A stretch of 64,000 bases of DNA from Lingula anatina. Taxonomy: Eukaryota > Animalia > Brachiopoda. Below, in pieces: positions 2,890-8,150 of the stretch. Each line of letters begins with the position of its first letter. Positions within the stretch are counted from its first letter, which is position 1. The position numbers and the translations under genes were made by a program. Location of the stretch: contig CM120648.1 in the NCBI GenBank assembly GCA_051362555.1, positions 7,126,587 to 7,190,586 of the forward strand, given 5' to 3'. The notes below the pieces were generated by a model. The model worked only from the letters and a program-made list of their open reading frames with translations. It was not told the origin of the DNA and did not search any database.

Positions 2890-5800
2890 AACGATGTGAA
2901 AATTAGAAATTGAGACGTCGCAGAGTAGTTTAGATGACGAAGATTTCTGAGTTCATTTTTTACTGATGACACAACTTATTGAAATTGGAACGTGATAAAG
3001 ATAGGGATGACGAAGATTTCTCACTGAATTTTTACTAATGACATTGTGAAATTGGAACGGTACACTGAAGATTGTGATGACGCAGATTTCTGCGTTCACT
3101 TTTTTTCTGATGACACAGCTTACTGAAACTGAGACGCCACAGAGTAGATTTGTATGACGAAGAGTTTTAGGTTCATTTTTACTGATGAAACTGCTAAGTG
3201 AAATTGAAACGTCATAGAGAACATAGGAATGACACAGATTTCTGCGGTTACTTTTACTAATAAACTCACCCTAAACATCTCTGTGACGCAGATTTCCGAG
3301 TTTATTTTGACTTATGACATAGGTAACTGAAATTGGAACGTCGCAGAGTACATTTGGATGATGAAGATTTCTGAGTTTATTTTTACTGATGACACAGCTT
3401 ATTAAAATTGGAACGTCACAGAGAAGATAGGAATGACACAGATTTCTCAGCTCACTTTAACTAATGAATTCAGTAATCTGAGTTCATTTTGACTTATGAC
3501 ACAGGAAAGTGAAATTGGAACGTCACAGAGAAGATAGGGATGACGCAGATTTCTGCGGTTACTTTTACTAATAAACTCACCCTAAACATCTCTGTGACGC
3601 AGATTTCCGAGTTAATTTTGACTTATGACATAGGTAACTGAAATTGGAACGTCGCAGAGTACATTTGGATGATGAAGATTTCTGAGTTTATTTTTACTGA
3701 TGACACAGCTTATTAAAATTGGAACGTCACAGAGAAGATAGGAATGACACAGATTTCTCAGCTCACTTTAACTAATGAATTCAGTAATCTGAGTTCATTT
3801 TGACTTATGACACAGGAAAGTGAAATTGGAACGTCACAGAGAAGATAGGGATGACGCAGATTTCTGCGGTTACTTTTACTAATAAACTCACCCTAAACAT
3901 CTCTGTGACGCAGATTTCTGAGTTTATTTTGACTTATGACATAGGTAACTGAAATTGGAACGTCACAGATAAAATAGGGATGGGGCAGATTTCTAAACTT
4001 ACTTTTACTAATTAACTCAGAAATGTGCGTCATTCTTAAGATAAGGATGACGCAAATTTCTGAGGTCACTTTCACTAAGAAATCTGCGTCACCCTAATCA
4101 TCTCTGTGACGCAGGTCTCTGAACTCATTTTGACTTATGACAAAGGAAAGCGAAATTGGAACGTCACAGAGAAGTTAGAGATGACGTAGATTTCTAAGGT
4201 CACTTTTACTGTTGACGCAGCTCATTGAAAGTGGAACGCAGGAGAGAAGATTGGGATGATGCAGACACCTGCGTTCATTAAACTCATGATGCGGTTATTT
4301 GAAATTGGAATTTCACAGAGAAGATGGGTATGACGCAGATATCTGAGCACTTTTTCAACTCATGAACTTAGAAATCTGTGTCATCCCCATCTTTGTGACG
4401 CAGATTTCTGATTCATTTTTACTGATGACACCGCTTACTGAAATTGGAACGTCACAGAGAAGATTGGGATGACACAGATTTGTCTTCTCTTCTCTGTGAC
4501 GCAGATTTCCGAGTTCATATTGACTTATGACATAGCAAAGTGAAATTGGAACGTCACAGAGAAGATGGTGATGACGCAGATTTCTGAGTTCATTTTTTAC
4601 TAATCGACTCAGAAATATGCGACACCCTAATCTTCTCTGTGACGAATGACATACTTTATTGAAATTGGAGTGTCACAGAGAACATTGGTATGTCGAGGAT
4701 CTCTGAGCTTACTTTTATTGTTGACGCAGCTCTTAAAAATTGGAACGCCACAGAGATTACTTTGAAGTCAGATCAAATTTTATTAATGGCGCAGTTTATT
4801 GAAATTGGAACCTCACAGAGAATAATGGAATGACGAAGATTTCATTTTTACTGATGACACAGCTGAAATTTGGACGTCACAGAGAAGGTAGGGATGACGC
4901 AGATTTCTAGTTCTTTTTTTACTGATGATGCCGCTTATTGACTTTGGAACGTCACAGAGTAGATTGGAAAGAGGCAGATTTCGGCGGTCACTTTTACTAA
5001 TAAACTCACCCTTATCATCTCTGTGACGCAGATTTCTGTGTTCATTTTTACTTATGACATTGCAAAGTGAAATTGGAACGTCACAGAGACGATAGGGATG
5101 ACCCAGATTTCGGACTTCACTTTTACTGATACTAAAATTGGAACGTCACAGAGAAAATACGGATGGCGCAAATTTCTTGACTTACTTTTATTAATTTACT
5201 CAGAAATGTGCGTAATTCCTAACCTTTTTTACTTATTTACGCAGATTTCTGAGTTCATTTTGACTGATGACATATCTAAGTGAAATTGAGACGTCGCAGA
5301 GTACATTTGGATGATGAAGATTTCTGAGTTTATTTTTACTGATGACACAGCTTACATGTATTAAAATTGGAACGTCACAGAGAAGATTGTGATGACGAAA
5401 ATTTCTCAGTGAATTTTTACTAATGACATTGTTTTGTGAAATTGGTACGGCACAGAGAAGATTGTGATGACGCTGATTTCTGCGGTCACTTTTACTAATA
5501 AACGAAGAAATCTGCGTCACCCTAATCATCTCTGTGAGGCAGGTTTCTGAGTTCATTTTGACTTATGACATAGCTTCTTAGAAATGGAACGTCAAAAGGA
5601 AGATTGGGATAACAAAGATTTCCGGGTTCATTTTTACTGATGACACAGCTTACTGAAATTGGCATGTCACAGAGAGGATAGGGATGACGCACATTTCTGA
5701 GGTCACTTTTACTAATGAACTCAGAAATCTGCGTCACCTTAATCATCTCTGTGACACAGGTTTCTGAGTTCATTTTTACTAAAGACATGCTTTATTGAAA

Positions 5801-8150
5801 TGGTAACGTCACAGAGGACATTGGTATGACGATCTGAAGATCTCTGAGGAGACTAGTTTGAAGTTAGATCATTTTTATTAATGACGCGGTTTATTGAAAT
5901 TGGAACCTCACAGAGAATATTGGAATGACAAAGCTCATTGGAATTGAAACGTCAAAGTGAAAATAGGGATGACGCAAATTTCTAGTTCTTTTTCACTGAC
6001 GATGCCACTGACGAGTTCATTTTGACTTATAACATGGCTAAGTGAAATTTATCCTAATCAGGATTTCATTTTGACTTATAACATAGCTGACTTATAACAT
6101 AGCTAAGTGAAATTTATCCTAATCATCTTTGTGACGTAGATTTCTGAGTTCATTTTGACATATGACACAGCTAATTGAAATTGGAACGTTATAGATAGGG
6201 ATGACGCAGATTTCTACGGTCACTTTTACCATTAACTCAGATATCTGCACCACTCTTATAATTTCTGTGACGCAGATTTCTAAGTTCATTTTGACTTATG
6301 ACATAGCTTATTGAAATTAGAACGTCACAGAGAAGATTGGGATGATCCAGATTTGTGAGTTTATTTTTTCACGATGGTGCAACTCAGTGAAATTAAAACG
6401 TCAAAAAGGGAGATGGGGATGGAGAAGATTTTTGAATTCACATTTAATACTGACATACTTTATTGAAATTGGAACTTCACAGAGAAGATGGGTATGACGC
6501 AGATATCTGAGCTCTTTTTAACTCATGAACTCGGAAATCTGTGTCATCCCCATCTCTGTGACGCAGATTTCTGATTCATTTTTACTGATGACACAACTTA
6601 TTAAAATTGGAACCTCACAGAGAAGATGGGTATGACACAGATATCTGAGCTCTTTTTAACTCATGATCTCAGAAATCTGTGTCATCCCCATCCCTCTGAG
6701 GCAGATTTCTGATTCATTTTTTCTGATGACACAGCTTATTGAAATTGGAACCTCACAGAGAAGATTGGGATGACGTAGATTTCTCAGTGAATTTTTACTA
6801 ATGACATACCTTTGTGAAATTGGAGAAGATAATGATGACGCAGATTTCTGAGGTCAATTTTACTGATGAACTCAGAAATCTGCGCTATCCCCATCTTCTC
6901 TTTGACGCAGATTTCTGATTCATTTTTACTGATGACATAGCTCATTCAAATTGGAATGCCACAGAGAAGATTGGTTTGAAGATTTCTGGGTTCATTTTTG
7001 CTTTTTGAAATTGGAACTTCACAGAGAAGATGATTATGACGCAGATACCTGAGCTCTACTTAACTAATGAACTCAGAAATCTGCATCATCCCCATCTCTG
7101 TGAGACAGATTTCTGATTCATTTTTTCTGATGACACAGTTTATTGAAATTGGAAAGTCACAGAGAAGATTGGAAACGTAGATTTCTCAGTGAATTTTTAC
7201 TAATGGCATCGCTTTGTGAAATTGGAGAAGATTATGTAACGCAGATTTCTGAGGTCAATTTTACTAATTAACTAAGAAATCTGTGTCACCCTTATCTTCT
7301 TTGTGACGCAAATTTCTGAGTTCATTTTGACTTATGACATAGCTTACAGAAATTGAAACGTCACAGAGAAGATATGGATAACTCGGATGTCTGACTTCAT
7401 TTTTACTGATAACACAGCTCGTTGAAAATGGAACGTCAAAAGGAGAAGATTGGGACGGCAAAGATTTCTGGGTTCGTTTTTTACTGATAGCACCGCTCAC
7501 TGAAATTGGAACGTCACAGAGAAGGTAGGGAGGACGCAGATTTCCGAGCTCAATTAAACAAATGACCTCAAACCTGCGTCATCCCCATCTCTGTGACGAA
7601 GATTGGTATGACAAAGGTTTCTGTGCACACATTTACTGATGATGCAGCTTACTGAAATTGGAACGCCATAGAGAAGACTGGGATGACGCAGATACCTGAG
7701 CTCTTTTTAACTCATGAACTCAAATCTGTGTCATCCCTATCTCTGTGACGCAGACTTCTCATTCAGTTTTACTAATAACATAGCTTATTGACATTGGAAC
7801 ATCACAGAAAAGATTGGGTTGATCCAGGTTTCTGAGTTTGTTTTCACGTTAGCGCAACTTACTGAAATTAAAACGTCAGAGTAGATGGGGTGACGAAGAT
7901 TTCTGAGTTTATTTTTACTAATGCCATACTTTTTTTAAATTGAAATATCACATAGAAGATTGGTACATGTATGACGAATATTTCTGAGCTCGCTTTTATT
8001 GTTGACGCAGCTTACTGAAATTGGAACGCCACAGAGAAGATTGGGATAATGCAGAGCTTACTGAATTTGGAACGCCAAGGAAAAGATTAGGATGACGCAG
8101 AGTGTCTTTAAAGAAAATTTGAATTGAAAAATGGACCGTCGCAGAGATCC
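2890..8150 (+). repeat. U6 snRNA-derived tandem array, ~75-bp unit with interspersed fold-back variants
   Basis: Consensus GACACAGCTTACTGAAATTGGAACGTCACAGAGAAGATTGGGATGACGCAGATTTCTGAGTTCATTTTTACTGAT, repeated roughly 45-55 times (estimate by eye); aligns to U6 ACTAAAATTGGAACGATACAGAGAAGATT and GGATGACACGCAAATTCGTGAAGCGTTCCATATTTTT. Confidence 0.9.
3251..3960 (+). repeat. 311-bp higher-order repeat within the array
   Basis: cttttactaataaactcaccctaaacatctctgtgacgc recurs at 3251, 3562 and 3873 with near-identical intervening sequence. Confidence 0.85.

Follow-up and report, generated by a model that had tools for sequence, protein, structure and literature searches.

Beside U6 snRNA genes of the brachiopod Lingula anatina lies a series of short fold-back hairpins in which U6-like sequence pairs with its own antisense. 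The locus raises the question of how these hairpins arose and whether they are kept as RNA genes. The reading favored here, with a probability of roughly three in four, is that internally deleted U6-like units form a tandem array beside the U6 genes and that its hairpins came from one or two template switches and were copied passively; we infer no selected RNA function for them.

A tandem array derived from U6

Two full-length U6 snRNA genes are the only Rfam matches at gathering score in the 64-kb window, the whole stretch of DNA analyzed. U6a (8490..8596, minus strand; RF00026, 116.7 bits, E 7e-30) faces the array, from which it is separated by 388 bp, and U6b (12913..13020, plus strand; RF00026, 105.1 bits, E 2.5e-26) carries an extra G in the internal stem-loop region. 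The 300-bp regions upstream of the two genes align with each other at a score of 138.5, against a shuffle maximum of 65. A motif derived from both regions, whose matches there hold by construction, lies at 8643..8659 (minus strand) for U6a, where a TATA-like stretch follows, and at 12850..12866 (plus strand) for U6b. From its position, as in type 3 Pol III promoters, the motif is presumably a proximal sequence element (PSE).

The array itself is a degenerate, head-to-tail series of ~54 U6-derived units on the plus strand (2906..8102; 5.2 kb), delimited by a profile search and TRF. The initial annotation had confined the hairpins to 4310..7750; they are present there, but these limits were too narrow for the array. 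The profile was built from 19 simple units and searched with nhmmer over the window, giving 50 matches that begin at model positions 1-5 and four that begin at 18-21. Beyond the array it matches the two U6 genes only, leaving one such array in the window. Units come in two sizes, simple ones of 75 nt and hairpin units of 136-148 nt, and TRF reports periods of 75, 138, and 311. Hairpin-unit descendants make up 24 of the ~54 units, while ~30 have no inverted arm. With head-to-tail units and higher-order duplications, the array qualifies as a satellite or minisatellite. One exact 25-nt unit motif, compared with metagenome contigs, had no matches. CpG decay was rejected, as transitions are not in excess at CpG (25/238, vs 156/1392 at other C/G positions).

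The kinship of the unit with U6 is direct. The rotated unit consensus aligns to U6a at 56.0 and to U6b at 60.5 (shuffle maxima 35.5 and 38.5), with identity at 58/69 and 60/70 of the positions aligned, and none of 2000 shuffled sequences aligned as well to either gene, which supports the U6-like nature of the sense units. In comparison with U6 snRNA (RF00026; PMC5855946), the units share the ACAGAGA box (consensus positions 15-21, with a mean uniformity of 0.90) and the sequence upstream; their 3′ part is degenerate and closes with a T run as in U6. They lack the 5′ stem-loop, the first 11-15 nt of U6 being absent, as well as an upstream PSE/TATA promoter. A gap of 19-20 nt against U6a nt 59-77 removes the catalytic internal stem-loop, and the AGC triad is altered. 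The unit ends show no poly(A) tail. The array probably began when a U6 copy of this cluster was stripped of the 5′ stem-loop and of the internal stem-loop of ~19 nt, leaving 75 nt that were then amplified in tandem.

Traces of that ancestral copy were sought within and around the array. The missing internal stem-loop piece was not found inside it (14 and 27 of 60 shuffles scored as well), nor were the promoter, 5′ end, or flank of the ancestral copy found at its edges. Candidate remnants of the promoter and 3′ flank were set aside after four flank tests that were not significant. The U6 likeness of the edges was equaled in 9/1000 shuffles on the left and 6-7/1000 on the right, uncorrected, and the left flank aligns with neither U6 upstream region and shows no promoter homology. 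A possible relic at 8127..8165 consists of a degenerate unit start followed by an inverted piece resembling the internal stem-loop (8147-8165). Its score was equaled in 6/1000 shuffles and 5/1118 background windows, uncorrected among about ten flank tests; it is suggestive that 8147-8165 could be the missing piece, inverted.

The retained ACAGAGA box and T run might also mean that transcription of the sense units yields short U6 mimics without a catalytic core, which would act as decoys engaging U6 proteins or 5′ splice sites. Uniformity is above the mean (0.85) at unit positions 1-10 (0.94) and 15-21, which speaks for such a role; the value for positions 1-10 is inflated, however, since that anchor was used to cut the units and local matches trim mismatched ends. 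Against it, the left flank aligns with neither U6 upstream region and no PSE-like motif lies near the array start: with three or fewer mismatches, the motif occurs in the window only at 1202 and 61922 besides the U6 promoters. The U4-pairing AGC and internal stem-loop region is gone from the unit, which makes entry into the spliceosome unlikely (PMC5855946). A decoy role is accordingly very improbable. Two related candidates were rejected. Selected structure in the simple unit (an inner stem of positions 11-15 and 31-35) gave a consensus z of -0.5 and no double-sided change in 10 pairs, and Pol III is unlikely to read through from U6a as far as the array given five runs of at least 5 T on that strand in 8150-8495.

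Hairpin units and their joints

All eight hairpins named in the initial annotation fold, at -32.6 to -49.7 kcal/mol (z -6.6 to -10.1), and none of 200 shuffles was equally stable. The example that it quoted (5666-5755) is present letter for letter. Its arms (5665-5705 and 5716-5756) are 41 nt long, 83% complementary, and 10 nt apart, and the unit around it (5655-5796) has the full 142-nt layout. Further hairpins begin near 4035, 5144, 5448, 6187, 6823, and 7225. Among 15 stretches folded as RNA, 14 have z of -3.5 or below (-3.5 to about -10). The exception is 4946-5027 (z -0.9), where the 3′ arm is deleted. No stable fold is seen in the 18 simple units examined (mean z -0.2 for either strand). 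As single-stranded DNA, three of three hairpins fold at -22.6 to -31.6 kcal/mol (z -7 to -11). Stems have ~41 pairs with ~19% mismatched cells, and loops span 10-12 nt.

The 3′ arms fall into two families. Family A comprises the quoted hairpin (5665..5756; z -10.0 as RNA, -11.0 as DNA), 4552..4644, whose third segment is mostly deleted (z -10.1), 5448..5539 (z -6.2), and two decayed copies, 5144..5241 (identified by profile matches) and 6187..6272 (z -3.5). Family B comprises 4311..4400 (z -7.1), 6475..6563 (z -8.5), and the tandem duplicate of the latter's unit, 6613..6701 (z -7.2; 138-bp period, 92%), together with 7017..7105 (z -6.6), 7664..7750 (z -8.2), and 7512..7598, in which sense resumes at model position 20 rather than 31 (z -6.9). 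The hairpin at 4035..4111 has a shortened 5′ arm and a partial inverted arm ahead of it (4011-4035). The hairpins at 6823..6907 (z -6.0) and 7225..7308 (z -5.1), in units starting at 6816 and 7218, have a 10-nt 5′ deletion in common while their 3′ arms belong to families B and A, respectively; 3′ arms have been swapped between lineages.

Fold-back chimeric reads yield inverted repeats, and the hairpins could in principle be assembly or library artefacts of that kind. Their arms are only ~77-83% complementary, however, with variants common to several copies, and the bin depths of RNA run X1 appear to imply a read over ~5622-5772, across the quoted hairpin, with no joints listed. An artefact is therefore extremely improbable.

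Full hairpin units have a common three-part layout: unit positions 1-64, the reverse complement of 48-11, and positions 36-75. This model fits 101-123 of 142 positions in 12 of 14 intact hairpin units and 89 and 81 positions in the other two, which are cut short. All 15 minus-strand profile matches end at model positions 49-54, 13 of them begin no later than 14, and 12 are followed by a return to sense at 31-33. Each joint coincides with a microhomology of 4-5 nt that is present in the simple unit, namely CGTCA/TGACG at the return, where TGACG had been reported earlier, and a second one, TCAT/ATGA, at the fold-back. As the unit contains 12 inverted 4-mers and two inverted 5-mers, the weight rests on their coinciding with the joints. 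The inverted segment has an adjacent source, inverted repeats occur at both joints, and the simple 75-nt units supply a parent state free of hairpins. The fixed joints and their microhomologies thus support the template-switch origin proposed at the outset.

In the event that this structure suggests, a nascent strand ending at unit position 64 would pair through ATGA (61-64) with TCAT (49-52) and copy positions 48 to 11 backwards, after which its new end, TGACG (the sequence of 31-35), would rejoin the template and copying would resume at 36. Such a switch during replication would add 67 nt and leave positions 31-48 in three copies, the middle one inverted. In a tree of the arms (38 columns, mostly unresolved), no 3′ arm is drawn as sister to its own 5′ arm and a single origin is not rejected (p-AU 0.56). 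It is likely that one or two template switches founded the hairpins.

Spread and loss of the hairpins

Common blocks and variants show that the hairpin unit spread by multi-unit duplications and exchanges. The youngest higher-order duplication (3171..3969, plus strand) has a 311-bp period and 2.6 copies at 96% matches (TRF), and includes 488 nt at 96.9% identity. It carries broken hairpins: its hairpin-derived units, at 3200, 3404, 3511, 3715, and 3822, all have broken 3′ arms.

The initial annotation had offered expansion by DNA cruciforms as another account; in the form considered here, the inverted repeats act as DNA hairpins or cruciforms and drive expansion of the array. The stable single-strand DNA folds and the share of units descended from the hairpin unit speak for such a motor. 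The ~30 armless units do not, nor does the fact that the visible effect of the hairpins is deletion, which has removed part of the stem in 10 of the 24 hairpin-derived units. The newest, 97%-identical block has copied only broken ones. Stems with ~20% mismatches and 10-12-nt loops are also poor cruciform substrates. Expansion driven by cruciforms is therefore not favored and seems quite unlikely; under passive copying, the arms would drift apart about as fast as other units while deletions remove parts of the stem.

Tests for RNA-level selection

Divergence from the consensus is in keeping with such drift, at 0.149 for 5′ arms, 0.132 for 3′ arms, and 0.157 for simple units. If pairing were maintained, arms should match their own partners best. 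Across the 14 hairpins, own and other arms do not differ in identity (0.769 vs 0.760, p 0.18) or in duplex energy (-36.57 vs -36.64, p 0.53). Paired cells make up 81.5% of the stems, vs 80.8% after shuffling, a level reached by 86/500 shuffles. The covariation score is slightly high yet within the shuffles (36/500 as high), and G-U (20) is not in excess over A-C (28), giving no strand preference. These 14 hairpins are short and related, which leaves the arm tests little able to detect weak or recent selection. In pairing with the 3′ arms, hairpin 5′ arms have an advantage of 4.0 kcal/mol over simple-unit arms (one-sided p 0.03), but the 5′ arms of six broken units are just as good (-37.0), a sign of shared ancestry. 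Identical derived changes in both arms occur in 10 cells, four of them T-to-G at position 26 in family B, and position 36 is C in all 14 hairpin 5′ arms vs 6 of 18 simple units. The absence of covariation between arms, which the initial annotation had named as part of a refuting result, leaves its idea of a selected pre-miRNA or hairpin-RNA polycistron without support, and the arms probably evolve neutrally.

A young miRNA needs no covariation, since maintained pairing marks old selected hairpins. The hairpins, born by template switching, may now serve as a cluster of young miRNA or hairpin-siRNA genes under Pol II, with products that could pair either with mRNAs or with the ACAGAGA region of U6. 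Poly(A) libraries often contain little primary miRNA transcript, and a few reads do fall on the array in run X1. Four of nine long-RNA runs with the same species label, mapped to 3975-8450 only and at 6-25% of each run (41.4 million records), gave 7, 0, 3, and 2 reads (12), without pile-ups; these counts are uncalibrated and have no positive control. The mark of a miRNA is a set of discrete reads of ~22 nt that come from both arms, have precise 5′ ends, and leave 2-nt overhangs. New miRNA genes can be founded by template switches, and the stems and loops here are near the ~35-bp stem and apical loop of at least 10 nt given for pri-miRNAs (PMC10710096). Possible duplexes of the 3′ arms with U6a reach -15 to -31 kcal/mol, with exact matches of up to 14 nt, which upholds the earlier remark that they are partly antisense to the ACAGAGA box; all 18 arms tested, however, pair better with their own 5′ arm. 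No Rfam miRNA family matches at gathering score (best 34.4 bits vs 80), and the weak matches, which occur on both strands, were dismissed as generic hairpin likeness. Arm sequences also vary among copies and are swapped, with neither covariation nor strand preference. On the plus strand, 11 of 14 loops contain a run of at least 4 T, at which Pol III would likely stop before the 3′ arm. A young small-RNA cluster is therefore unlikely. A bolder version, in which the U6 cluster spawned its own regulator, with amplified Microprocessor-sized hairpins giving 3′-arm RNAs antisense to the ACAGAGA region that tune or police U6 and U6-like transcripts, is a rather distant prospect.

Relation to known systems

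The locus has several known counterparts. Like the template-switch births of miRNAs, the hairpins combine an inverted copy, produced in one step by switching within or between strands, with a miRNA-sized stem and a mix of inverted and direct repeats (PMC10710096). They differ in that the switch fell within a unit of a tandem repeat and has 24 descendants through amplification, here known from DNA alone. The working also resembles ODIRA and its inverted triplications, although 18 nt were triplicated and 67 nt gained here, vs kilobases in ODIRA (PMC11790251). Strict ODIRA depends on a replication origin and an extrachromosomal intermediate (PMC11790251); as neither is shown nor needed here, the locus is ODIRA-like and is not filed as ODIRA.

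As truncated, non-functional copies, the units are akin to U6 snRNA pseudogenes (PMC4476161). Those described there are dispersed (alone, as LINE chimeras, with poly(A), or 3′-truncated), and the word ‘tandem’ is absent from the main text of that paper, whereas the array copies are head-to-tail, internally deleted, and adjoin U6 genes. Satellites with a proposed origin from noncoding RNA genes, such as alpha satellite from a snoRNA, share head-to-tail degenerate units, higher-order duplication, and a small-RNA gene source (PMC4233971). The present array differs in its U6 source and its directly visible homology, and it spans 5 kb at one locus of the 64-kb window. In the available parts of two further papers, U6 is treated only as a multigene family in grasshopper satellite work (PMC7754599), and the sea-star U6 study gives no promoter letters for comparison (10.1101/2023.01.09.523328). 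The mechanisms are thus already known; a U6-derived substrate, or a tandem repeat born from a U6 gene, was not found in the literature searched.

Arrays of U6-derived hairpin repeats would mislead both U6 and miRNA annotation. If the arms did yield small RNAs, the catalytic RNA of the spliceosome would have given rise to a miRNA cluster in part antisense to itself. On the present reading, a template switch has left a clear fossil record here, in which the parent unit, the two-joint product, and many stages of decay stand side by side, so that the birth of a hairpin and its neutral loss may be measured within a single 5-kb locus.

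Genomic setting and U6 genes

The window DNA is of animal type, as Pfam matches to MTHFR and to a calsyntenin piece indicate (4 of the 8 tested frames matched). A multi-exon MTHFR gene lies at 41500-48500 on the plus strand (PF02219, PF21895), with matches in two frames at 42217-44569. Likely 3' exons of a calsyntenin gene lie at 61870-63557 on the minus strand (PF19699, calsyntenin C-terminal piece, at 61870-62190), and a 74-bp duplication (62047-62196, 97%) overlaps the calsyntenin frame. Fragmented frames at 22500-29500 (minus strand), one with DUF6729 (E 7e-9), are possibly a decayed mobile element, and a 240-aa open frame at 51216-51938 (minus strand) has no Pfam match. 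By eye, within the segments 18336-18760 and 18780-18930, positions 18810-18930 form an inverted copy of about 18385-18500, which suggests a small element bounded by terminal inverted repeats.

At gathering score, Rfam has two matches in the window, both full-length U6: U6a (8490-8596, minus strand) and U6b (12913-13020, plus strand). Both look like genes because the 300 bp upstream of one are homologous to those upstream of the other (score 138.5; shuffles reach at most 65), with shared stretches that, from their position, we take to be PSE-like and TATA-like. U6b differs from U6a by an additional G in the internal stem-loop region and a single change in the 3' part, and its 5' stem-loop is not the same, yet the two promoters are homologous; U6b could be a variant gene or else a pseudogene of recent origin. 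Over their whole length, the 300-bp downstream flanks gave no alignment above shuffles. By eye, the first ~25 nt past the two terminators (8461-8489 and 13021-13050) are alike, and those of U6a include a stretch resembling the start of the array unit. A PSE-like motif match with 2 mismatches (1202-1218, plus strand), 1.7 kb left of the array, has no U6 behind it.

A tandem array derived from U6

The degenerate tandem array that harbours the hairpins spans 2906-8102 and stops 388 bp short of the 3' end of U6a, to which it is oppositely oriented. A profile built from 19 simple units (75-nt U6-like repeats without an inverted arm) finds ~54 unit starts in the array; elsewhere in the window it matches only U6a and U6b. 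Cut after its T run, the 75-nt consensus aligns to U6a and U6b with scores of 56.0 and 60.5 (shuffle maxima 35.5 and 38.5; 0/2000 shuffles), with 58/69 and 60/70 aligned positions identical. The part of U6 that it represents runs from about nt 12-16 through the terminal T run and includes the ACAGAGA box. The 5' stem-loop is absent, AGC is altered, and a 19-20-nt gap crosses U6a nt 59-77, where the internal stem-loop presumably lies, going by human U6; because of these three defects the units, judged from sequence, cannot be working U6. According to PMC5855946, the ACAGAGA box, AGC triad and internal stem-loop are essential parts of U6, and U4 pairs with the unwound stem-loop. The best Rfam U6 score of any single unit is 21.2 bits, against Rfam's 44, and the unit was rejected as a member of the U6 gene family, its core being missing. 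A promoter sought at the array start was not found.

Since the array adjoins the U6 genes, descent from a local third U6 copy at the DNA level would be the simplest reading; a possible rival origin is a retrocopy that skipped the stem-loop. At 8127-8165, a degenerate unit start precedes an inverted piece resembling the U6 internal stem-loop (8147-8165), near the expected stem-loop site. Its score is matched by 6/1000 shuffles and 5/1118 background windows, uncorrected for ~10 tests, and it is weakly suggestive of a possible relic of a fuller ancestor. Directly left of the array, 2855-2885 (plus strand) has a weak U6 likeness, with 9/1000 shuffles as good.

Hairpin anatomy and probable template switching

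The initial annotation described U6-like fold-back hairpins at 4310-7750, read as a pre-miRNA-like polycistron or as cruciforms. The hairpin it quoted exists (5665-5756; 41-nt arms, 83% complementary, 10 nt apart), and all 8 that it named fold, with z from -6.6 to -10.1 (0/200 dinucleotide shuffles each). Among 15 stretches folded as RNA, 14 have z <= -3.5 and the remaining one has its 3' arm deleted. As single-stranded DNA, 3/3 tested hairpins fold with z -7 to -11; for a simple unit, at z 0.3, no such fold is seen.

A full hairpin unit, 142 nt long (exactly so at 5438 and 5655), runs from consensus positions 1-64 through the reverse complement of 48-11 (the 3' arm) to 36-75 (the third segment); positions 31-48 are therefore present in triplicate, the middle copy inverted. 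All 15 minus-strand profile matches end at model 49-54; 12 start at 11-14, 1 at 4 and the others at 24 and 28, and sense resumes at 31-33 after 12/15. Within the simple unit, an inverted 4-mer lies at the fold-back joint (TCAT 49-52 / ATGA 61-64), and the TGACG microhomology reported at the return joint is indeed present as an inverted 5-mer (CGTCA 11-15 / TGACG 31-35). PMC10710096 describes such an outcome for template switching and, at kilobase scale, PMC11790251 does so for ODIRA; despite the likeness, the array is not filed as ODIRA, of which origin dependence is a feature. The template-switch origin first proposed is supported by structure and joints, but the replication mechanism is one we infer, and intrastrand and interstrand switching would fit equally.

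Spread within the array

The 3' arms fall into two sequence families, A and B, each tied to its own third segment. In a tree built on 38 columns from 45 sense and 14 antisense copies (sense matches with <33/38 letters excluded), the antisense arms group together (5 changes, where shuffling gives 12.6; 0/500) and none is placed as sister to its own 5' arm; most forks are open, and within that limit a single antisense clade is acceptable (p-AU 0.56). One or two template switches, subsequently copied within the array, would fit the hairpins. Duplicated multi-unit blocks measure 488 nt (96.9%), 369 nt (87.0%) and 181 nt (92.8%). Arms were also exchanged between hairpins, because units 6816 and 7218 have a common 10-nt deletion and loop variant, yet 3' arms of different families. 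Read from the sequence, a long stem survives in 14 hairpin-derived units and is partly lost in another 10; those in the youngest duplication (3171-3969) are all broken.

Pairing, expression and U6

Covariation between arms, the check set initially, did not emerge among the 14 intact hairpins: the 41-pair structure has 81.5% of cells paired against 80.8% shuffled (86/500), with 6 double-sided-change pairs against 5.1 (193/500) and a covariation score of 0.095 against 0.082 (36/500). Nor does a 3' arm match its own 5' arm better than others in identity (0.769 vs 0.760, p 0.18), alignment score (p 0.29) or duplex energy (p 0.53 plus, 0.49 minus). Strand preference is absent (G-U 20, A-C 28), and divergence from consensus is about equal in arms (0.149 and 0.132) and simple units (0.157). 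These tests have low power against weak or recent selection. In favour of selected pairing, hairpin 5' arms pair with 3' arms 4.0 kcal/mol better than do 18 simple-unit arms (p 0.03), position 36 is C in 14/14 hairpin arms vs 6/18 simple units, and a derived change is common to both arms in 10 cells, 4 of them one family-level change. Shared ancestry explains all three; 5' arms of 6 broken units pair just as well (3715 and 3822 excluded as near-identical copies).

Four of nine long-RNA runs (41.4 million records), uncalibrated and blind to 22-nt RNAs, were mapped to 3975-8450 and placed 7, 0, 3 and 2 reads there; pile-ups, joints and variants were all absent from the output. Run X1 alone had fully aligned reads (6/7, 4 at >=99%), including three read pairs with the first mate on the plus strand. 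This suggests that the sequence exists in the X1 sample; rare transcription and genomic DNA both fit. Pol III is unlikely to transcribe the hairpins as a polycistron, since T runs stud the plus strand of the array (36 of >=5 T) and the hairpin loops (>=4 T in 11/14). The antisense 3' arms could pair with U6a (predicted -15 to -31 kcal/mol; 14 nt in the longest exact match), yet in 18/18 the own 5' arm is the preferred partner. A known miRNA family was rejected, Rfam at gathering score giving only U6, and a small-RNA cluster antisense to U6 is improbable.

Comparison with known systems

A U6- or snRNA-derived tandem array was not found among the titles and abstract starts listed from the open-access literature, where the papers listed included PMC4476161, PMC7754599 and PMC4233971. 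The hairpin observation is confirmed and its first interpretation supported in part. The best explanation, at roughly three chances in four, is a U6-derived array whose template-switch hairpins were amplified passively, a system that by analogy would work like a template-switch inverted triplication within a satellite-type array.
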